Below, one piece after another: positions 9,636-59,900 of a stretch of DNA of 64,000 bases. Both the position numbers and the translations under genes were made by a program. Position 1 is the stretch's first letter. Every line of letters starts with the position of its first letter. The DNA is from Escherichia coli (GTDB lineage Bacteria; Pseudomonadota; Gammaproteobacteria; Enterobacterales; Enterobacteriaceae), in NCBI RefSeq assembly GCF_045037415.1, contig NZ_CP173438.1; one strand, given 5' to 3'. Under the pieces are notes generated by a model. It made no database searches. It was not told the DNA's origin and was given only the letters and a program-made list of their open reading frames with translations.

Positions 9636-10406
9636 GTGAAAAGTATAATTGACCCATCGGCATTATTCATTGATTTAGGCGCGCAGAAACGTCCCACTGT
9701 GATTTCTATTGTTGGTGCTGGGGGGAAAACCAGCTTGCTTTTTTGGCTGGCAGAACTGTTCCAGGCGAGTGGCAGGCGTGTATTAATCACTACGACGACA
9801 CATATGTTTATGCCAACATCTCACTGGCCCGTGGTTTTCTGTCGTGATCCCGCCATGCTTCCTCATGCGTCTTTTATATCCCCCATTTCATTTTGTTTTC
9901 ACTGCTGGAAAGCGAACCAGGGAAAAGTGCAGGGATTTACGCCAGAAGCGATTGATGCACTGGTACAACGACCAGAGTGTGACGTAATTCTCATTGAGGC
10001 AGATGGCTCGCGTGGAATGCCGTTAAAAGCGCCTGATGAGCACGAACCTTGCATACCTAAAAGCAGTTGCTGCGTGATTGCTGTGATGGGAGGACATATT
10101 TTGGGTGCGAAAGTGAGCACAGAAAATGTCCATCGCTGGTCGCAGTTTGCTGATATTACTGGGTTAACACCTGATGCACCCTTGCAACTGAGCGATCTCG
10201 TTGCGCTGGTTCGCCACCCTCAGGGCGCGTTTAAAAACGTACCGCAAGGTTGTCGGCGAGTCTGGTTCATTAACCGTTTTTCTCAATGTGAGAATGCGAT
10301 TGCGCAAAGCGAGCTCCTTCAACCGCTGCAACAACACAACGTAGAGGCAATCTGGCTGGGCGATATACAAGAACATCCTGCAATCGCGCGCAGATTTGTG
10401 AATTAG
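9636..10406 (+). CDS. yqeC: P-loop accessory protein of selenium-dependent molybdenum hydroxylase systems
   Basis: 256 aa, GTG start; Walker A IVGAGGKTS. Confidence 0.85.
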   Translation: MKSIIDPSALFIDLGAQKRPTVISIVGAGGKTSLLFWLAELFQASGRRVLITTTTHMFMPTSHWPVVFCRDPAMLPHASFISPISFCFHCWKANQGKVQGFTPEAIDALVQRPECDVILIEADGSRGMPLKAPDEHEPCIPKSSCCVIAVMGGHILGAKVSTENVHRWSQFADITGLTPDAPLQLSDLVALVRHPQGAFKNVPQGCRRVWFINRFSQCENAIAQSELLQPLQQHNVEAIWLGDIQEHPAIARRFVN

Positions 10407-18416: not shown

Positions 18417-18726
18417 TATTGATGCCAGTTTCCGGTTGTTTGTAAAATACGAAAACGTTTGGCTTTTTTTATTACGTTATTTATTTGCTGCTAAGTATCA
18501 GAAATAAGATAAAGAGGCAGGCTATCTCTCTTCAGTTTGATAAACTTGCCGCTGTAATTCTCATATTGATATAGAAATGTGATATCTCTTCCATAATTTT
18601 ATTAGAAAGTGATAAAAATCTTATGTTTTTATCAAAGCCAATTTCGCCTGAGTTAATATCATCATGATCTGTGAACCATCAACGTCTTCAATGATCGACT
18701 TTTAAGTAAGTCTGGAAGGTAAAGCT

Positions 18727-20505
18727 ATGGAGCTTGCGACTACGCAGTCAGTATTGATGCAAATTCAACCAACAATTCAGCGTTTTGCCAGAATGCTTGC
18801 CAGCGTTTTGCAGCTTGAGGTTGAGATCGTTGATGAAAACTTGTGTCGCGTCGCCGGAACGGGCGCGTATGGGAAGTTTCTTGGCCGCCAGTTGAGCGGC
18901 AACTCACGTCTGCTCCGCCACGTCCTGGAAACGAAAACTGAAAAAGTTGTGACACAGTCTCGCTTCGATCCCCTTTGTGAAGGTTGCGATAGTAAAGAAA
19001 ATTGCCGCGAAAAAGCATTTCTGGGTACGCCAGTCATTTTACAGGATCGTTGTGTTGGGGTGATAAGTTTGATTGCCGTTACCCACGAGCAACAAGAACA
19101 TATCAGTGATAATTTACGCGAATTTTCCGATTACGTTCGCCATATATCCACCATTTTTGTTTCTAAACTTCTGGAGGATCAGGGACCAGGAGATAACATC
19201 AGTAAAATATTCGCGACCATGATCGATAATATGGATCAGGGCGTGTTAGTGGTTGATGCTGATAATCGGGTTCAGTTTGTTAATCAGACAGCTTTAAAAA
19301 CACTCGGTGTTGTACAAAATAATATTATTGGAAAACCTGTTCGTTTCAGACCATTAACATTTGAGAGTAATTTTACCCATGGTCATATGCAACATATTGT
19401 TTCGTGGGATGATAAAAGTGAATTAATCATTGGTCAGTTGCATAACATCCAGGGCCGACAACTATTTTTAATGGCGTTTCACCAATCGCATACCAGTTTT
19501 TCTGTAGCAAATGCACCTGATGAACCGCATATTGAACAATTGGTTGGCGAGTGCCGTGTTATGCGGCAATTAAAACGACTCATTAGCCGTATTGCACCCA
19601 GCCCATCCAGCGTTATGGTGGTTGGTGAAAGCGGCACGGGTAAAGAAGTCGTCGCCCGTGCAATCCATAAGTTGAGCGGAAGACGGAATAAACCCTTTAT
19701 TGCTATCAACTGTGCCGCGATTCCGGAACAGCTTCTGGAGAGCGAACTGTTCGGTTATGTTAAAGGCGCATTTACTGGCGCTTCTGCCAACGGTAAAACA
19801 GGGTTGATTCAGGCGGCGAATACGGGCACGCTGTTTCTCGATGAAATTGGTGATATGCCATTAATGTTGCAGGCTAAATTACTGCGCGCTATTGAGGCGC
19901 GTGAAATTCTGCCGATTGGTGCCAGTAGCCCAATACAAGTCGACATCCGCATCATTTCTGCAACTAATCAGAATTTGGCCCAGTTCATTGCCGAAGGTAA
20001 ATTCCGCGAAGATCTCTTCTACCGACTTAATGTTATCCCGATAACTCTTCCACCGCTGCGTGAACGTCAGGAAGATATTGAATTACTAGTGCATTACTTT
20101 TTACATCTGCATACCCGTCGTCTGGGATCGGTTTATCCTGGCATTGCTCCTGATGTCGTCGAAATATTGCGTAAGCATCGTTGGCCCGGAAACCTGCGCG
20201 AGTTAAGCAATTTGATGGAATATCTGGTTAACGTTGTTCCTTCAGGTGAAGTTATCGACAGCACGCTATTGCCGCCAAATCTGCTGAATAATGGCACAAC
20301 GGAGCAAAGTGATGTAACAGAGGCCAGTGAGGCGCACCTGTCACTCGATGATGCGGGCGGCACGGCGCTGGAAGAGATGGAAAAGCAAATGATCCGCGAG
20401 GCGCTTTCACGTCATAACAGCAAGAAGGAAGTTGCTGATGAACTGGGCATCGGCATTGCTACGCTCTATCGCAAGATTAAGAAATATGAGTTGTTAAACA
20501 CATAA
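18727..20505 (+). CDS. ygeV: Sigma-54-dependent transcriptional activator (bacterial enhancer-binding protein) with N-terminal sensor domain
   Basis: 592 aa; Walker A GESGTGKE, GAFTGA sigma-54 contact motif, C-terminal HTH. Confidence 0.95.
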   Translation: MELATTQSVLMQIQPTIQRFARMLASVLQLEVEIVDENLCRVAGTGAYGKFLGRQLSGNSRLLRHVLETKTEKVVTQSRFDPLCEGCDSKENCREKAFLGTPVILQDRCVGVISLIAVTHEQQEHISDNLREFSDYVRHISTIFVSKLLEDQGPGDNISKIFATMIDNMDQGVLVVDADNRVQFVNQTALKTLGVVQNNIIGKPVRFRPLTFESNFTHGHMQHIVSWDDKSELIIGQLHNIQGRQLFLMAFHQSHTSFSVANAPDEPHIEQLVGECRVMRQLKRLISRIAPSPSSVMVVGESGTGKEVVARAIHKLSGRRNKPFIAINCAAIPEQLLESELFGYVKGAFTGASANGKTGLIQAANTGTLFLDEIGDMPLMLQAKLLRAIEAREILPIGASSPIQVDIRIISATNQNLAQFIAEGKFREDLFYRLNVIPITLPPLRERQEDIELLVHYFLHLHTRRLGSVYPGIAPDVVEILRKHRWPGNLRELSNLMEYLVNVVPSGEVIDSTLLPPNLLNNGTTEQSDVTEASEAHLSLDDAGGTALEEMEKQMIREALSRHNSKKEVADELGIGIATLYRKIKKYELLNT

Positions 20506-20543: not shown

Positions 20544-21023
20544 TTACTTTGTTTTCTCGCAATCCAGAACTGTATTTACAATCATCTGATACCCCGTGCA
20601 GCGACAAAGATTTCCCGCCAGTCCACGACGAATTTCCGTAATGGTTAATGGCTTCTCGCGTGGTTTCGCCAGCATTGCCGTGGTAGCCATAATCAGGCCC
20701 GGCGTACAAAACCCGCATTGCACTGCACCAGATTTCGCATAAGCCAGTTGGACATGAGAAAGTTTACCGCCTTTCGCTTCACCTTCCAGCGTGCGGATCT
20801 CTTTTCCTTCAGCCCAGGCCGCAAGGAATAAGCAACTGTCTATCGCAGTGCCGTCGACCAGCACCGTACAGGCACCACATTCACCCACGCAGCACCCTTG
20901 TTTGACACTTAGCAGTCCTTGTTCGCGGAGTAATTCCGAGAGCGGCGTGCCTGGTGCGGCGTGAAGCTGAAAAGGCATCCCGTTAATGGTGCATTCGATG
21001 GTAATTGTTTCGCTGTGATTCAT
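20544..21023 (-). CDS. xdhC: [2Fe-2S] iron-sulfur subunit of xanthine dehydrogenase
   Basis: 159 aa; [11 protein letters not shown] and CGFCTPG...CRCTGY cluster motifs. Confidence 0.95.
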
Positions 21024-21897
21024 TGCAATTTCCCCCCGCCGCGGCGACGGCTTCGCTAATCACTTTTTTGGTCATCGTCTGGATGAGATGCAGACGAAAC
21101 TCTTTACTGGCCCGCCATGACGAACGCGGGGCGACATCTTGCAGGACTGATTCGCTGATGGCTTCCAGCGTTTGCAGGTTTAATGGCGCATTTTGTGCAG
21201 TCTGTTCGGCATGTTGGCAGCGAATCGGCGTTGGCGCGGCAACACCAAATGCCAGGCGTAATTCGCTGAAATTGCCGTTATCCAGTCGGCAATGTGCGGC
21301 GCAGCCAATTGTTGAAATATCCATTGCGTCGCGCATGGCATATTTAAAATGCGCGCTGCCCGCGTGTTCTTTCGGCTGTGGCGGAAAATGAAAGGCGACA
21401 AGGATTTCGTCATGCTCAAGAGACACTTTGCCCGGCCCGGTGTGAAAGCCATTAATCGGGACGAAACGAACACCGCGCGGGGAGTGGATCTCCAGTTTCG
21501 CGTCATAAATTAGCGTTGGCGTGGCAGAATCTGCGCTGGTGGCACCGTTGCAAATATTTCCGCCGTAGGTGGCGACATTACGGATCTGCGGCCCGGCGAT
21601 TGATGCAGCCGCAGCACATAACGCCGGGAGATGACGTTGAGTTACAGGATCTTCAATGAGCTGGGTAAATGTCGTTGCAGAGCCGATACGTAGCGCGCCA
21701 TCTTCCGCCAGCGTAATTCCCCGCAGCTCCGCCAGATTATGAATATCAACAATATGGCGATAACGGTCATTGTGATGGTGAAGCTGTATCAGTACGTCAG
21801 TGCCACCGGCGAGCAGTTTGGCCTGCGGGTTGTCAGTCAGCAGGTTGATGGCATCGGCAAGGGTTGCTGCGCGATGGTAAGAAGCAAAATCAAACAT
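20983..21897 (-). CDS. xdhB: FAD-binding subunit of xanthine dehydrogenase; here 304 aa with altered C-terminus (possible frameshift)
   Basis: [13 protein letters not shown] motif; ORF extends 41 nt into xdhC; expected length 292 aa by recall. Confidence 0.85.
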
Positions 21898-21907
21898 GAT
21901 GTTATCC

Positions 21908-24166
21908 TCAAATCAATCCTGCCAGATGGAATTCTTCATATAATCGTTTTGGCGTTAGCGGCAGTGTATTGATTGCAACACCGGTAGCCATCTTCACCGC
22001 GTTACGAATAGCAGCGGCTACAGGAATTATGGGTGGCTCACCCAGTGACTTATGTCCGTATGCGGATTGCGGCTCATTGATTTCGACGAACGCGCTTTCC
22101 AGTTGTGGCAGATCCGGCATGGTCGGCATTTTGTAATCCAGCAGATTGGGGTTACGGACCACGCCGCTTTTCGCATCGATGATCATCTCTTCAAATAGCG
22201 CCCAGCCAATGCCCATCCCCATTCCGCCGTGTACCTGACCTTCTGCCAGCAGCGGATTAAGAATATGGCCCGAATCATGAACGTTGAGGATGCGGTTGAT
22301 GGTTACTTTACACAGTGCAATATCGACCGTCAGATCAACAAAGGTACAGCCAAACGCCGGTGGGTTAGTGGTGGTTTTGATGGAGCTTTCGGCAGAGAGC
22401 TGCCCGCCGCGTTCAGGGTGGTAGAAAGCGTCCATCGCCAAATCTTTTAACGACATTAACGGCTCTTCCGGTCGTTCAACCAGCACGATATGGCCTTTTA
22501 TCAGGGTCAGATTCATCGCTGACTGATGTAGCATGACTGCGGCGTGAGCGATGATTTTCTCTTTTAATAACAGTGCCGCACTGCGCAGCGCAGGCGCGGC
22601 AACATAGCTCTGACGTGAGGCAAATGCGCCGGGGTCGAATGGTGTAACGTCGGTGTCTTGTGTCGAAATTACGCGGACATCGCTGACCGGAACTCCCACG
22701 GTTTCTGCCACCATTTGCGAGAACACGGTGTCGGCACCCTGGCCGATTTCCGTCGCGCCGCTTTGCACGTTGATGGTTCCATCCTGATTCATCAACAGGC
22801 GCGCGCCTGCTATTTCTACGCCGACAGGCCAGGTGTTAGAGGTGTAGCTAAAACAGGCGACGCCAACGCCACGACGTAAATTGCCTTGCTGGTTCTGGCA
22901 CTCTGCACGGCGTTTTTCCCATTCAAAGATTTTCCGGCCTTTTTCAAGACACTCCGGCAACCCTGCGCTGTAAATACGTTTTCCCGTGAGCGGATTAGCA
23001 TCTCCTTCGCGGGCGGCGTTGCGTAAACGAATTTCAACAGGATCAATACCTAACGCTGTCGCGGCATCATCAAGCATAGACTCAACGGCAAATACGACTT
23101 GTGGCGCGCCATAACCACGCATCGCACCAGCCGAGGGGAGGTTGGTATAGCAGGTCTTTGAACTGTAAGCGTAGGCACAACGAGGATAAAGGTAAGCGAC
23201 TTTATTCCCCCCAGCAGAAGCAATGGAGTGCCCGTGAGATGCATAAGCGCCGGTGTTAGACAGAACATCCAGACTATAACCTTTCAATGTTCCGTCGCGG
23301 TTCACGCCCATTTGCCCGTCAATAGTAAAAGCGTGGCGGGTACGGGTTGCGAGGAAACACTCTTCACGGCTAAGAGAAACTTTCACCGGAATGCCGCCAA
23401 GTTTGCTTGTCAGGAATGCCGCCATTGGCTCTTCCAGTACATCCTGTTTATTACCAAAACCGCCACCGATAAACGGTTTGATGACTCGTACGCATGACCA
23501 GGGAATATCCAGCGCCTGACCAACCACGCGGCGAACAATGTGCGGGATCTGGGTGCTGGAAACGATGGTAATTCGCGAGTCATCCTCCATCCATGCCAGC
23601 GATGTCACGCTTTCCATATGACAATGTTGAATAACGGGCGTCTGATAGTGCCCCTGTACCTGGTAGTCGGCGGCATCGATTGTTTGTTGGACATTACCCG
23701 TCGACATCGTGCTTTGTTTCAGTAAATTGCCACCGTTATGGATTGGTGCAGCGTCTTCTGCCAGCGCCGCTTCTGACGAGGTGATAACGGGTAATTCTTG
23801 CCACTCAATGCTGACCAATTGCACCGCTTTTTCTGCCGTGAGTTCATCGCGGGCTACGACGATGGCAACGGCGTCACCATGATGACGAACATGACGCGTT
23901 AGCAGGGCACGATCGGCAGTATCGCGCTTGTTTTCGTCAAGTGTCCAGGCATGCCCTGCCGTGGCGAATGGGATTTCTGGCACATCTTCCCAGGTAAAAA
24001 TCGCCAGGACGCCCGGCAAACTCCTGGCTTGTTCATCATTAATACTTACGGCATAACCATGTGCGATAGGGCTACGTACATATTTCGCGTAACACATGCC
24101 CGCCATAACATAATCGTCAGTATATCGTGCCCGCCCGGTGACCTTAGCAATGGCATCGACGCGCAT
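21908..24166 (-). CDS. xdhA: Molybdopterin-binding subunit of xanthine dehydrogenase
   Basis: Start chosen at MRVDAIAKVTGRARYTDDY (752 aa) rather than the 765-aa upstream start; GGGFGNK motif. Confidence 0.93.
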   Translation of the reverse strand: MRVDAIAKVTGRARYTDDYVMAGMCYAKYVRSPIAHGYAVSINDEQARSLPGVLAIFTWEDVPEIPFATAGHAWTLDENKRDTADRALLTRHVRHHGDAVAIVVARDELTAEKAVQLVSIEWQELPVITSSEAALAEDAAPIHNGGNLLKQSTMSTGNVQQTIDAADYQVQGHYQTPVIQHCHMESVTSLAWMEDDSRITIVSSTQIPHIVRRVVGQALDIPWSCVRVIKPFIGGGFGNKQDVLEEPMAAFLTSKLGGIPVKVSLSREECFLATRTRHAFTIDGQMGVNRDGTLKGYSLDVLSNTGAYASHGHSIASAGGNKVAYLYPRCAYAYSSKTCYTNLPSAGAMRGYGAPQVVFAVESMLDDAATALGIDPVEIRLRNAAREGDANPLTGKRIYSAGLPECLEKGRKIFEWEKRRAECQNQQGNLRRGVGVACFSYTSNTWPVGVEIAGARLLMNQDGTINVQSGATEIGQGADTVFSQMVAETVGVPVSDVRVISTQDTDVTPFDPGAFASRQSYVAAPALRSAALLLKEKIIAHAAVMLHQSAMNLTLIKGHIVLVERPEEPLMSLKDLAMDAFYHPERGGQLSAESSIKTTTNPPAFGCTFVDLTVDIALCKVTINRILNVHDSGHILNPLLAEGQVHGGMGMGIGWALFEEMIIDAKSGVVRNPNLLDYKMPTMPDLPQLESAFVEINEPQSAYGHKSLGEPPIIPVAAAIRNAVKMATGVAINTLPLTPKRLYEEFHLAGLI

Positions 24167-24260
24167 GCATGATTCACCCGTAGCGGTTGCTTCCCGCGCT
24201 TCCATAGAAATCCCCTCGGTTTGAACATTTGGTTCTTATGGCAAAGATTTAGTCTTAGCA

Positions 24261-24618: not shown

Positions 24619-25374
24619 TTGAGTGCGGGACGCCTGAATAAAAAATCTCTGGGTATCGTGATGTTGTTATCGGTTGGACTGCTTTTGGCGGGCTGTTCGG
24701 GTAGCAAATCATCCGATACAGGAACGTATTCCGGCTCCGTTTACACCGTGAAACGGGGGGATACGCTATATCGTATTTCGCGCACCACGGGAACCAGCGT
24801 AAAAGAACTGGCGCGACTGAACGGCATTTCCCCCCCTTACACCATTGAAGTAGGTCAGAAACTAAAACTGGGTGGGGCGAAAAGTAGCAGTAGTACACGT
24901 AAATCAACCGCCAAATCCACGACCAAAACCGCATCGGTTACACCGTCATCAGCGGTACCGAAATCTTCCTGGCCGCCAGTAGGGCAACGTTGTTGGTTAT
25001 GGCCAACGACAGGGAAAGTTATCATGCCGTATTCGACAGCAGATGGCGGCAATAAAGGGATTGATATCTCAGCTCCACGAGGTACACCTATTTACGCCGC
25101 GGGTGCAGGAAAGGTGGTGTATGTGGGCAACCAGCTGCGTGGCTACGGTAATCTCATCATGATTAAACACAGTGAAGATTACATTACGGCTTACGCTCAT
25201 AATGACACGATGCTGGTAAATAATGGGCAAAGCGTGAAGGCTGGGCAAAAAATCGCCACTATGGGGAGCACTGATGCGGCATCTGTTCGCCTGCATTTCC
25301 AGATTCGTTACCGTGCAACGGCAATTGATCCGCTACGTTACTTGCCGCCTCAGGGCAGCAAGCCAAAATGCTGA
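24619..25374 (+). CDS. ygeR: LysM plus M23/LytM-domain lipoprotein (amidase-activator type)
   Basis: Lipobox LLAGCS, LysM segment YTVKRGDTLYRISR, C-terminal M23-like domain; TTG start at 24619 chosen to give 251 aa, alternative ATG at 24595. Confidence 0.85.
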   Translation: MSAGRLNKKSLGIVMLLSVGLLLAGCSGSKSSDTGTYSGSVYTVKRGDTLYRISRTTGTSVKELARLNGISPPYTIEVGQKLKLGGAKSSSSTRKSTAKSTTKTASVTPSSAVPKSSWPPVGQRCWLWPTTGKVIMPYSTADGGNKGIDISAPRGTPIYAAGAGKVVYVGNQLRGYGNLIMIKHSEDYITAYAHNDTMLVNNGQSVKAGQKIATMGSTDAASVRLHFQIRYRATAIDPLRYLPPQGSKPKC

Positions 25375-36884: not shown

Positions 36885-40251
<3,367 letters not shown>

Positions 40252-44485: not shown

Positions 44486-46732
44486 ATGCTCACTCGCCTG
44501 CGCGAAATAGTCGAAAAGGTAGCCAGCGCACCACGCCTGAATGAGGCGTTAAATATTCTGGTTACCGACATCTGTCTTGCGATGGATACCGAGGTCTGTT
44601 CGGTCTACCTGGCTGATCATGATCGACGTTGTTACTACCTGATGGCGACCCGGGGACTGAAAAAACCACGCGGTCGCACTGTAACGCTCGCGTTTGATGA
44701 AGGGATCGTCGGCCTGGTTGGCAGGCTGGCGGAACCGATAAACCTTGCAGATGCGCAAAAGCACCCCAGCTTCAAATACATCCCCTCCGTAAAAGAAGAA
44801 CGTTTCCGCGCGTTTTTAGGCGTACCAATTATTCAACGTCGCCAGTTGCTTGGTGTACTGGTGGTACAGCAACGAGAGTTGCGCCAGTATGACGAAAGTG
44901 AAGAATCCTTCCTGGTGACGCTTGCCACCCAGATGGCAGCTATTCTTTCTCAGTCGCAGTTGACTGCCTTGTTTGGGCAATATCGCCAGACGCGAATCCG
45001 TGCATTACCGGCAGCACCTGGTGTGGCGATTGCCGAAGGCTGGCAGGATGCCACGTTACCTTTAATGGAACAGGTGTATCAGGCATCAACGCTGGATCCG
45101 GCTCTGGAACGCGAACGACTGACCGGGGCGTTGGAAGAGGCGGCTAACGAGTTTCGCCGCTATAGCAAACGCTTTGCTGCCGGTGCACAAAAAGAAACGG
45201 CGGCTATTTTCGATCTTTACTCACACCTGCTTTCGGATACCCGGCTGCGTCGCGAATTGTTTGCCGAGGTTGATAAAGGCTCGGTGGCAGAGTGGGCGGT
45301 AAAAACGGTCATTGAAAAATTTGCCGAACAGTTTGCCGCGCTAAGCGATAACTATCTCAAAGAGCGGGCTGGCGATTTACGTGCACTTGGTCAGCGATTG
45401 CTGTTTCATCTTGATGACGCTAATCAAGGGCCGAACGCCTGGCCGGAACGTTTCATTCTGGTGGCAGATGAACTGTCAGCGACAACGCTTGCTGAGCTGC
45501 CCCAGGATCGCTTAGTCGGTGTTGTCGTGCGCGATGGCGCTGCCAACTCCCATGCTGCGATCATGGTACGTGCGCTGGGGATCCCTACCGTGATGGGCGC
45601 GGATATTCAGCCTTCGGTACTGCATCGTCGGACGCTGATCGTCGATGGTTATCGCGGTGAATTGCTGGTCGATCCGGAGCCGGTACTGCTGCAAGAATAT
45701 CAGCGGCTAATTAGTGAAGAGATCGAGCTTAGCCGTCTGGCGGAAGATGACGTCAATTTACCCGCCCAGTTAAAAAGCGGCGAACGCATTAAAGTCATGC
45801 TCAATGCCGGTTTAAGCCCGGAACATGAAGAAAAACTGGGCAGCCGTATTGATGGCATAGGACTTTATCGCACTGAAATCCCATTCATGCTGCAAAGTGG
45901 TTTTCCGTCGGAAGAAGAACAGGTGGCGCAGTATCAGGGGATGCTGCAAATGTTTAATGATAAACCCGTCACCTTGCGTACGCTGGATGTCGGAGCAGAT
46001 AAGCAGCTGCCTTACATGCCGATCAGCGAAGAGAATCCATGCCTGGGTTGGCGTGGGATTCGCATTACGCTCGATCAGCCGGAGATCTTCTTGATCCAGG
46101 TGCGGGCGATGCTGCGTGCTAATGCCGCTACGGGCAACCTGAATATTCTGTTGCCGATGGTCACAAGCCTCGATGAAGTTGACGAAGCACGCCGCCTGAT
46201 TGAACGTGCCGGACGTGAAGTCGAGGAGATGATCGGTTACGAAATTCCCAAACCACGTATCGGCATCATGCTGGAAGTGCCGTCAATGGTGTTTATGCTG
46301 CCGCATCTGGCAAAGCGGGTCGATTTCATCTCTGTTGGCACCAACGATCTGACGCAATACATCCTGGCCGTTGATCGCAACAATACCCGGGTGGCGAACA
46401 TTTATGACAGTCTTCATCCTGCAATGTTACGAGCTCTGGCGATGATCGCCCGGGAAGCGGAAATACATGGAATCGATCTCCGTTTGTGCGGTGAAATGGC
46501 GGGCGATCCGATGTGCGTGGCAATCCTCATTGGGCTTGGGTATCGCCATCTGTCTATGAACGGACGTTCTGTAGCGCGCGTAAAATACCTGCTGCGGCGC
46601 ATTGATTTTGCCGAAGCAGAAAATCTTGCGCAGCGTAGTCTGGAAGCGCAACTGGCGACCGAAGTTCGCCATCAGGTTGCAGCCTTTATGGAGCGTCGCG
46701 GCATGGGCGGGCTGATTCGTGGGGGGTTATAG
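44486..46732 (+). CDS. ptsP: Nitrogen-PTS enzyme I (EI-Ntr) with N-terminal GAF domain
   Basis: 748 aa; PEP-utilising enzyme body preceded by GAF-like domain; 12 nt after rppH. Confidence 0.95.
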   Translation: MLTRLREIVEKVASAPRLNEALNILVTDICLAMDTEVCSVYLADHDRRCYYLMATRGLKKPRGRTVTLAFDEGIVGLVGRLAEPINLADAQKHPSFKYIPSVKEERFRAFLGVPIIQRRQLLGVLVVQQRELRQYDESEESFLVTLATQMAAILSQSQLTALFGQYRQTRIRALPAAPGVAIAEGWQDATLPLMEQVYQASTLDPALERERLTGALEEAANEFRRYSKRFAAGAQKETAAIFDLYSHLLSDTRLRRELFAEVDKGSVAEWAVKTVIEKFAEQFAALSDNYLKERAGDLRALGQRLLFHLDDANQGPNAWPERFILVADELSATTLAELPQDRLVGVVVRDGAANSHAAIMVRALGIPTVMGADIQPSVLHRRTLIVDGYRGELLVDPEPVLLQEYQRLISEEIELSRLAEDDVNLPAQLKSGERIKVMLNAGLSPEHEEKLGSRIDGIGLYRTEIPFMLQSGFPSEEEQVAQYQGMLQMFNDKPVTLRTLDVGADKQLPYMPISEENPCLGWRGIRITLDQPEIFLIQVRAMLRANAATGNLNILLPMVTSLDEVDEARRLIERAGREVEEMIGYEIPKPRIGIMLEVPSMVFMLPHLAKRVDFISVGTNDLTQYILAVDRNNTRVANIYDSLHPAMLRALAMIAREAEIHGIDLRLCGEMAGDPMCVAILIGLGYRHLSMNGRSVARVKYLLRRIDFAEAENLAQRSLEAQLATEVRHQVAAFMERRGMGGLIRGGL

Positions 46733-56925: not shown

Positions 56926-59900
56926 TGTCGCCGAGACACTAGATCCTTTGCGCTTGCCCTTACAGGGCGAGCGCCTGATTGAAGCCTCTGCCGGCACAGG
57001 CAAAACCTTTACGATTGCGGCGCTCTATTTGCGCCTGTTACTTGGACTAGGCGGTTCGGCCGCCTTTCCCCGCCCGCTGACCGTTGAAGAACTGCTGGTG
57101 GTGACCTTTACCGAGGCTGCCACGGCAGAATTGCGTGGTCGTATCCGTAGCAATATCCACGAGTTGCGCATCGCCTGTCTGCGTGAAACCACCGACAATC
57201 CACTGTACAAACGCCTGCTGGAAGAGATCGACGATAAAGCGCAAGCCGCGCAGTGGTTGTTGTTAGCCGAGCGGCAGATGGATGAAGCGGCAGTCTTTAC
57301 TATCCACGGCTTTTGCCAGCGCATGCTCAACCTGAATGCCTTTGAATCCGGCATGCTGTTTGAGCAGCAGCTGATTGAAGATGAGTCTCTGCTACGCTAC
57401 CAGGCCTGCGCCGATTTCTGGCGTCGCCACTGCTACCCGCTGCCGCGTGAAATTGCCCAGGTCGTCTTTGAAACCTGGAAAGGGCCGCAGGCGTTGCTGC
57501 GCGATATTAATCGTTATCTGCAAGGCGAAGCGCCAGTTATCAAAGCACCGCCCCCCGATGATGAAACGCTGGCTTCCCGCCACGCGCAAATTGTGGCGCG
57601 TATTGATGCCGTAAAACAGCAGTGGCGCGACGCAGTGGGTGAACTGGATGCGCTGATCGAATCTTCTGGTATTGATCGACGCAAGTTTAACCGTAGCAAT
57701 CAGGCTAAATGGATCGAGAAGATCAGCGCCTGGGCAGAAGAAGAGACCAATAGCTATCAGTTGCCGGAGTCGCTGGAAAAATTCTCTCAGCGTTTCTTAG
57801 AAGATCGCACGAAAGCCGGGGGGGAAACCCCGCGACATCCACTGTTTGAGGCGATCGATCAACTGCTTGCAGAACCATTGTCGATCCGCGATCTGGTGAT
57901 CACCCGCGCATTGGCTGAGATCCGCGAAACAGTAGCGCGTGAAAAACGCCGCCGTGGCGAATTGGGTTTTGATGACATGTTAAGTCGGCTCGATTCCGCG
58001 CTGCGTAGTGAAAGCGGCGAGGTATTGGCAGCGGCGATCCGTACGCGATTCCCGGTGGCAATGATCGATGAATTTCAGGATACCGACCCCCAGCAGTACC
58101 GAATTTTTCGCCGTATCTGGCACCATCAGCCGGAAACCGCATTGTTGCTGATTGGCGACCCGAAACAGGCCATATATGCATTCCGGGGTGCGGATATCTT
58201 CACTTATATGAAGGCGCGTAGCGAAGTTCATGCTCACTACACCTTAGATACCAACTGGCGTTCCGCACCGGGAATGGTGAACAGCGTTAACAAACTTTTC
58301 AGCCAGACTGATGACGCGTTCATGTTTCGTGAAATACCGTTTATTCCTGTGAAATCTGCCGGGAAAAATCAGGCGTTACGCTTTGTGTTTAAAGGTGAAA
58401 TGCAGCCTGCGATGAAAATGTGGCTGATGGAAGGCGAAAGCTGCGGCGTTGGCGACTATCAAAGTACCATGGCGCAGGTATGTGCTGCGCAAATCCGCGA
58501 CTGGCTACAAGCCGGACAGCGGGGCGAAGCGTTGCTGATGAACGGCGACGATGCGCGTCCGGTGCGTGCTTCGGACATCAGTGTGCTGGTGCGCAGCCGC
58601 CAGGAGGCCGCTCAGGTGCGCGATGCCTTAACGCTGCTGGAAATCCCTTCCGTTTACCTTTCGAACCGCGACAGTGTTTTTGAAACTCTGGAAGCACAGG
58701 AGATGCTTTGGCTGTTGCAGGCGGTGATGACGCCCGAACGTGAGAACACCCTGCGCAGTGCGCTGGCAACGTCAATGATGGGGCTGAATGCGCTGGATAT
58801 TGAAACGCTGAATAATGACGAACATGCGTGGGATGCGGTAGTCGAAGAGTTCGATGGTTATCGGCAAATCTGGCGCAAACGTGGCGTTATGCCGATGCTG
58901 CGGGCGCTGATGTCGGCGCGTAACATTGCAGAAAACTTGCTGGCAACGGCAGGCGGTGAGCGGCGTCTTACCGATATCTTGCATATCAGCGAACTGCTAC
59001 AAGAAGCCGGAACGCAGCTGGAAAGTGAACATGCGCTGGTACGCTGGTTATCGCAACATATCCTCGAGCCAGACAGTAATGCCTCCAGCCAACAAATGCG
59101 CCTCGAAAGTGATAAACATCTGGTGCAGATTGTCACGATACACAAATCAAAAGGGCTGGAATATCCGCTGGTCTGGTTGCCATTTATTACCAATTTCCGC
59201 GTCCAGGATCAGGCGTTTTATCACGATCGCCACTCGTTTGAGGCCGTTCTGGATCTTAATGCTGCGCCAGAAAGCGTCGACCTCGCGGAGGCCGAACGTC
59301 TGGCGGAAGATCTGCGTTTACTTTACGTGGCGCTGACGCGTTCGGTTTGGCATTGCAGTCTCGGCGTTGCACCGCTGGTGCGCCGTCGTGGCGATAAAAA
59401 AGGTGATACCGACGTCCACCAAAGTGCGCTCGGGCGTTTGCTGCAAAAAGGAGAACCGCAAGATGTGGCAGGGCTTCGTACCTGCATTGAAGCGTTGTGC
59501 GATGATGATATTGCCTGGCAAACGGCACAAATTGGTGATAACCAGCCCTGGCAGGTTAATGATGCATTAACTGCAGAACTGAATGCGAGGACGCTACAAC
59601 GATTGCCCGGCGATAACTGGCGTGTCACCAGCTACTCCGGTTTGCAGCAGCGTGGTCACGGTATCGCTCAGGATCTGATGCCACGGTTGGATGTTGATGC
59701 CGCAGGCGTGGTCAGCGTCGTTGAAGTACCGACGTTAACACCGCATCAGTTCCCGCGCGGTGCGTCACCGGGGACATTCTTGCACAGTTTGTTTGAAGAC
59801 CTCGATTTTACCCAGCCGGTTGACCCGAACTGGGTACAGGAAAAACTGGAGCTCGGTGGCTTTGAACCGCAGTGGGAACCGGTGTTGACTGAGTGGATCA

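Follow-up and report, generated by a model that had tools for sequence, protein, structure and literature searches.

The xdhB–xdhC junction

The window, by which we mean the whole 64,000-nucleotide stretch of Escherichia coli DNA that was analysed, carries on its minus strand an operon in which XdhB is encoded between the molybdenum and 2Fe–2S subunits, in the order xdhA–xdhB–xdhC. The upstream gene xdhA is an intact 765 amino acid open reading frame for the molybdenum subunit (21908-24205), xdhB is a 304 amino acid open reading frame by translation (20983-21897) and xdhC encodes a 159 amino acid Fe–S (2Fe–2S) subunit (20544-21023) whose ATG start codon at 21021-21023 is unchanged. The ygeV gene follows on the plus strand (18727-20505). 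The E. coli XdhB protein, the 292 amino acid FAD-binding subunit of the xanthine dehydrogenase XdhABC, shares both this xdhA–xdhB–xdhC–ygeV neighbourhood and its domain content with the window's protein: precomputed Pfam hits place PF00941 (FAD_binding_5), followed by PF03450 (CO_deh_flav_C), on the exact 304 amino acid product. Matches obtained with phmmer, among them CutM and the FAD subunit of nicotinate dehydrogenase, extend over residues 6-293.

The window differs from canonical XdhB at the 3′ end of the gene, where 15 residues substitute for the usual KLQ and translation stops 41 nt inside xdhC. The altered tail, comprising codons 290-304 and a TAA stop, occupies 20983-21030 on the minus strand (the TAA itself lies at 20983-20985) and corresponds to nothing more than the xdhC 5′ end in a different reading frame. 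As a result, xdhB and xdhC overlap by 41 nt (20983-21023) rather than by the normal 4-nt ATGA. At the point of divergence lies a homopolymer tract at 21029-21037, G6A3 on the coding strand, that is 9 nt in length instead of the usual 10 nt; on the plus strand it reads T3 (21029-21031) followed by C6 (21032-21037). Both the extended reading frame and the T3–C6 tract had been described in a first-pass annotation of this DNA, and the coordinates, translation and sequence bear out the description.

That annotation had also put the usual length of XdhB at 292 amino acids. This proved correct: an 879-nt xdhB with an ATGA overlap is present in RefSeq in the ST131 strain 4/1-1, the K-12 derivative ER1709, an O157:H7 strain and the type strain ATCC 11775. 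Residues 1-289 of the window's XdhB are identical to those of the ST131 292 amino acid protein (WP_000459203.1), and restoring a single base to the tract returns both the 292 amino acid product and the ATGA overlap, as expected for a one-base homopolymer contraction that shifts the last three xdhB codons. The canonical C-terminus (...GGKLQ) and ATGA overlap are absent from the window but present in every non-carrier genome examined. The window's product corresponds to the RefSeq protein WP_094248867.1, which is also the product of the identical xdhB of strain WGS1363 and shows no difference from the window.

Tract alleles in public genomes

Comparison with RefSeq complete genomes identifies the window as E. 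coli O25b:H4-ST131. Over positions 9000-33999 it differs from EC958, JJ1886, JJ1887 and dozens of further ST131 chromosomes only by one base that these have in addition, whilst a single substitution separates positions 34000-58999 from all ST131 genomes compared, with no perfect match to that segment among the complete RefSeq genomes searched. In the ST131 strains U12A-U15A, 9000-33999 is matched in two pieces spanning ~1.25 kb more than the query, which suggests an insertion somewhere in this segment, probably an IS element.

Alignment of the junction revealed three alleles: G7A3 in ST131, G6A4 in the K-12 derivative, O157:H7 and ATCC 11775, and G6A3 in the window. In each of the 10-nt alleles, the sequence ...GCG GGG GG(G/A) AAA TTG CAA TGA encodes ...AAAGGKLQ followed by a stop, giving 292 amino acids. 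The first-pass annotation had proposed that one T was missing from the plus strand, correctly predicting the C-terminus, protein length and ATGA overlap that an added base would restore. The identity of the base is where it went astray: the ST131 relatives of the window have C7T3, so that relative to its own lineage the window is without one C, not one T. The C6T4 form that was proposed is instead the K-12-type tract.

Exact matching of a 61-mer spanning the 9-nt G6A3 tract found it in 18 of the 5279 complete E. coli genomes in RefSeq, far from the majority that would be expected were the 304 amino acid form typical of the species. The 10-nt ST131-type tract, G7A3, was matched exactly by a 62-mer in 573 of 5132 such genomes; the remaining genomes are one mismatch away from G7A3, as G6A4 would be, and three representatives did prove to have G6A4, the tract of most E. 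coli. An 11-nt form, G7A4, occurs in 10 of 5280 complete RefSeq E. coli genomes, and G8A3, the 11-nt form that one additional base would produce in an ST131 background, occurs in none. Taken together, the length variants of 9 and 11 nt account for 28 of about 5280 genomes (~0.5%), and the in-frame TGA stop is retained in 99.5%.

The 304 amino acid form is annotated on two backgrounds, as WP_094248867.1 in ST131-type genomes and WP_000459183.1 in K-12-type genomes. The latter stems from the loss of an A from G6A4 on a different haplotype, whereas the window is one G short of G7A3. PGAP annotates the 304 amino acid product as an intact XdhB rather than as a pseudogene. RefSeq accessions already exist for the allele, and the tract in which it lies is the site of a published indel.

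Undercall or inherited deletion

The first-pass annotation left a choice between sequencing error and genuine strain variant, and both demonstrably occur in public genomes. For the window itself, we consider it slightly more probable than not that the C6 call reflects an undercalled homopolymer that persisted in an assembly based on long reads and not a change in cellular DNA; we infer this cause from the pattern seen in public genomes. If so, the real gene would carry G7, as every well-characterised ST131 genome does, and encode a 292 amino acid XdhB with a TGA stop overlapping the xdhC ATG. The short tract is a one-base change in a G/C run relative to genomes that are otherwise identical, and what groups the public ST131-type carriers is their sequencing project, not their phylogeny. 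B2-type xdh haplotypes, from ST131 or close relatives, account for 14 of the 18 carriers, and 12 of these 14 complete genomes come from four projects: the UID project in Bangkok (n = 6), a Taiwan series (439, 446 and 463), a Polish project (A1.S1.18 and A1.S1.126) and ECKH-100. In the UID project the deletion is found on at least four different haplotypes; the haplotype of UID2309220013 is also represented by three genomes from other projects, and in all three the tract is intact.

The window has two further G/C runs of 7 nt, and as a control complete genomes were searched for forms of these that are shorter by one base. The C7 run in actS (24830-24836) is shortened in 4 of 5309, and the G7A3 run in recB (57818-57824) is called as G6 in 47 of 5407 complete RefSeq genomes, and these again cluster by project. 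They include A1.S1.18, A1.S1.126 and four further genomes from the Polish project, eight from the Taiwan series, UID2309220027, UID2309220013, ECKH-100 and ECKH-505. Among the 18 xdhB carriers, five (A1.S1.18, A1.S1.126, UID2309220027, UID2309220013 and ECKH-100) also have the recB G6 call, against a base rate of 0.9%. A recB frameshift in that many isolates is not credible as biology, and the recB G6 calls in public genomes have the look of systematic homopolymer undercalling. The recB calls share with the public xdhB calls the G7A3 run class, the projects of origin and the loss of a single G, and since these same projects also shorten recB G7 and other G/C runs, their xdhB calls look like undercalls too.

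Individual genomes tell a similar story. Strain 447, from the Taiwan project, has a normal 292 amino acid XdhB but a ‘frameshifted’ recB that is flagged by PGAP, and its genome size lies within about 150 nt of those of 439, 446 and 463. Strain 439 additionally has C6 shortened to C5 in the xdhA run at 23207-23212, and UID2309220027 has G6 shortened to G5 at 9720 (run 9720-9725). Three long-read carriers found in GenBank only (L003, L006 and L008) show deletions in T7 and C6 runs as well, whilst in ECZP248 six neighbouring genes are frameshifted. Of the carriers that come from error-prone projects, about half are as clean as the window itself over the ~40 kb covered.

One-base deletions at the xdhA C6 run (23207-23212), a T7 run (18464-18470) and the G6 run at 9720-9725 were seen in other public ST131 assemblies, namely 439, UID2309220027, CP163600, LQHK01000008 and JBQMUY010000001, in which xdhA and yqeC are annotated as split or ‘frameshifted’.

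The quality of the window itself speaks for the alternative, that replication slippage removed one G of the G7 run in an ST131 sublineage whose XdhB would now be 304 amino acids in length, an explanation that we regard as a serious one even if its chances fall somewhat short of even. All 60 other homopolymers of at least 6 nt in 9000-58999 match the ST131 consensus, including a T9 run, two T8 runs, the actS C7 run and the recB G7 run, so that no other homopolymer miscall was found among them. This is evidence against a generally noisy assembly, and distinguishes the window, which keeps recB G7, from the genomes with recB undercalls; the xdhB change, unlike the recB one, is innocuous enough to exist as a real allele as well.

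Evidence for a real deletion comes from several sources. The allele is present in WGS1363, an ST131 H30R1-M27 strain described as a hybrid Illumina and ONT assembly and identical to the window over 25 kb; WGS1363 was the only carrier for which a literature search on strain names returned a result. MSB1_4E also carries the allele and has no other undercall in the regions tested. The exact ST131-type 304 amino acid protein is found on 157 contigs in 317 index blocks, from sources that include Logan and ENA, and in 247 of the 317 blocks no carrying contig reaches 200 kb, a size that looks like the product of short-read assembly. The tract is, moreover, an indel hotspot confirmed by Sanger sequencing in laboratory evolution (PMC6706779), and homologous structures align only to about residue 285-293, placing the change outside the conserved fold.

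That a 304 amino acid form can persist in nature is apparent from a K-12-like lineage with the equivalent deletion (G6A4 to G6A3, WP_000459183.1). The K-12-type protein is found in 256 blocks, mostly on contigs of 20-50 kb. The Korean complete genomes Z1322HEC0001 and Z1322HEC0009 share a 6.6-kb haplotype with a Logan contig from SRR28364837, and related haplotypes also carry the allele. Korean clinical genomes and Logan short-read contigs both belong to this K-12-like lineage (loci L013, L014, L017 and L019-L021). The occurrence of the 304 amino acid allele on these near-identical haplotypes indicates that it is stably inherited and tolerated.

Against an ST131 sublineage with a genuine deletion stands the fact that project-specific undercalling explains most of the ST131-type carriers among complete genomes. 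Furthermore, no SNP shared specifically by carriers was found in the window, so that no clade is demonstrated. A T-to-C change at 39387 in lplT, found in 4 of 5379 complete genomes (A1.S1.18, UID2404240038, UID2309220027 and Esc19), marks an ST131 subgroup of small size. The xdhB deletion call is shared by three of these genomes, but these three stem from two error-prone projects and the tract of the fourth, Esc19, is intact. The lplT change is therefore ambiguous as a marker of a carrier clade.

The only substitution private to the window, in comparison with more than 500 ST131 genomes, lies at 44614 and is a synonymous GCC-to-GCT change in codon 43 (Ala43) of ptsP. Besides homopolymers, it is at methylation motifs that residual nanopore errors typically occur. 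A Dcm motif (CCTGG, 44608-44612) ends 2 nt before position 44614 and a Dam motif (GATC, 44615-44618) begins directly after it, and positions within 2 nt of both types of motif make up only 0.06% of the window. The substitution may be a methylation-context basecalling error, although as a sign of a second miscall in the window this context is only a hint.

Consequences for XdhB, xdhC and annotation

If the deletion is genuine, ribosomes translating xdhB would pass the xdhC start codon and terminate 38 nt beyond it. The two genes would no longer be coupled by termination and reinitiation, leaving xdhC to rely on direct initiation from its own Shine–Dalgarno sequence. Judged from the sequence, this is likely to be the G run itself, which lies 8 nt upstream of the xdhC ATG at the same spacing as in ST131. 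The enzyme would probably still work, given that both conserved domains are intact and the last three residues alone are replaced, and the persistence of an equivalent allele in the K-12-like lineage suggests that uncoupling is tolerated. At most, the window would harbour a rare C-terminal variant, probably a neutral one, of a single subunit of an enzyme of purine catabolism that is not essential. The change in the window's xdhB is ordinary and of little biological importance: a miscall in sequencing or else a rare variant of this kind that does no harm.

The wider importance of the junction is for annotation. PGAP accepts the 304 amino acid product as intact and the call therefore propagates, whilst one-base undercalls in G runs create apparent pseudogenes of recB, xdhA and yqeC in ‘complete’ RefSeq genomes. 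Before the length of XdhB or such ‘pseudogenes’ are used as markers, the sequencing project and technology need to be checked.

Single-base changes in the same G run are known from the laboratory. The xdhB mutation 860ins861G (A287fs) arose during adaptive laboratory evolution of a K-12 mutS strain, in which it was confirmed by Sanger sequencing and small growth-rate differences were reported (Front Microbiol 2019, PMC6706779). The G run of the junction tract corresponds to nt 861-866 of K-12 xdhB. Like the change in the window, 860ins861G affects a single base at the 3′ end of xdhB but it does so in the opposite direction, the +1 change fusing xdhB to xdhC in frame where the −1 change of the window yields a 15-residue out-of-frame tail. 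According to the account given in the same article, the mutation was also seen in the evolution of recoded E. coli (Wannier 2018, cited in PMC6706779).

These observations raise the question of whether the tract might serve as a functional slippage switch or a site of programmed recoding, with changes in tract length, or ribosomal or transcriptional slippage, altering the expression of XdhB and XdhC. Both −1 and +1 forms do exist, in 18 and 10 genomes, respectively; the +1 form opens a 451 amino acid XdhB–XdhC reading frame and, as PMC6706779 describes it, has recurred in laboratory evolution. Nevertheless, we regard such a switch as very improbable. The run is only 6-7 nt in length, the variants make up ~0.5% of genomes and are grouped by sequencing project, the extension is no more than an out-of-frame reading of the xdhC 5′ end and the in-frame stop is almost universally kept. 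Two specific versions were considered and rejected. A phase-variable contingency locus typically has a tract of at least 8 nt, and here the 28 variant genomes are mostly clustered by project; a programmed ribosomal frameshift is at odds with both the retention of the in-frame TGA and the out-of-frame nature of the extension.

A related proposal, which we rate as very unlikely, is that the 10-nt G/A tract, serving at once as the xdhC ribosome-binding site, forms a slippage-prone, three-state junction at which the length changes that recur in natural lineages and in the laboratory are selected for their effects on xanthine dehydrogenase subunit stoichiometry or purine catabolism. The 10-nt state would give separate subunits that are translationally coupled, the 9-nt state an extended XdhB with xdhC uncoupled and the 11-nt state a fusion.

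In the 11-nt G7A4 form, the 451 amino acid XdhB–XdhC fusion frame is uninterrupted (loci L022-L024), and xdhB is annotated by PGAP as a partial pseudogene. A single water project in Panama supplied six of the ten G7A4 genomes, each from a different strain and on differing backgrounds, the remainder being RM11911, H2, N169 and mip270_04.
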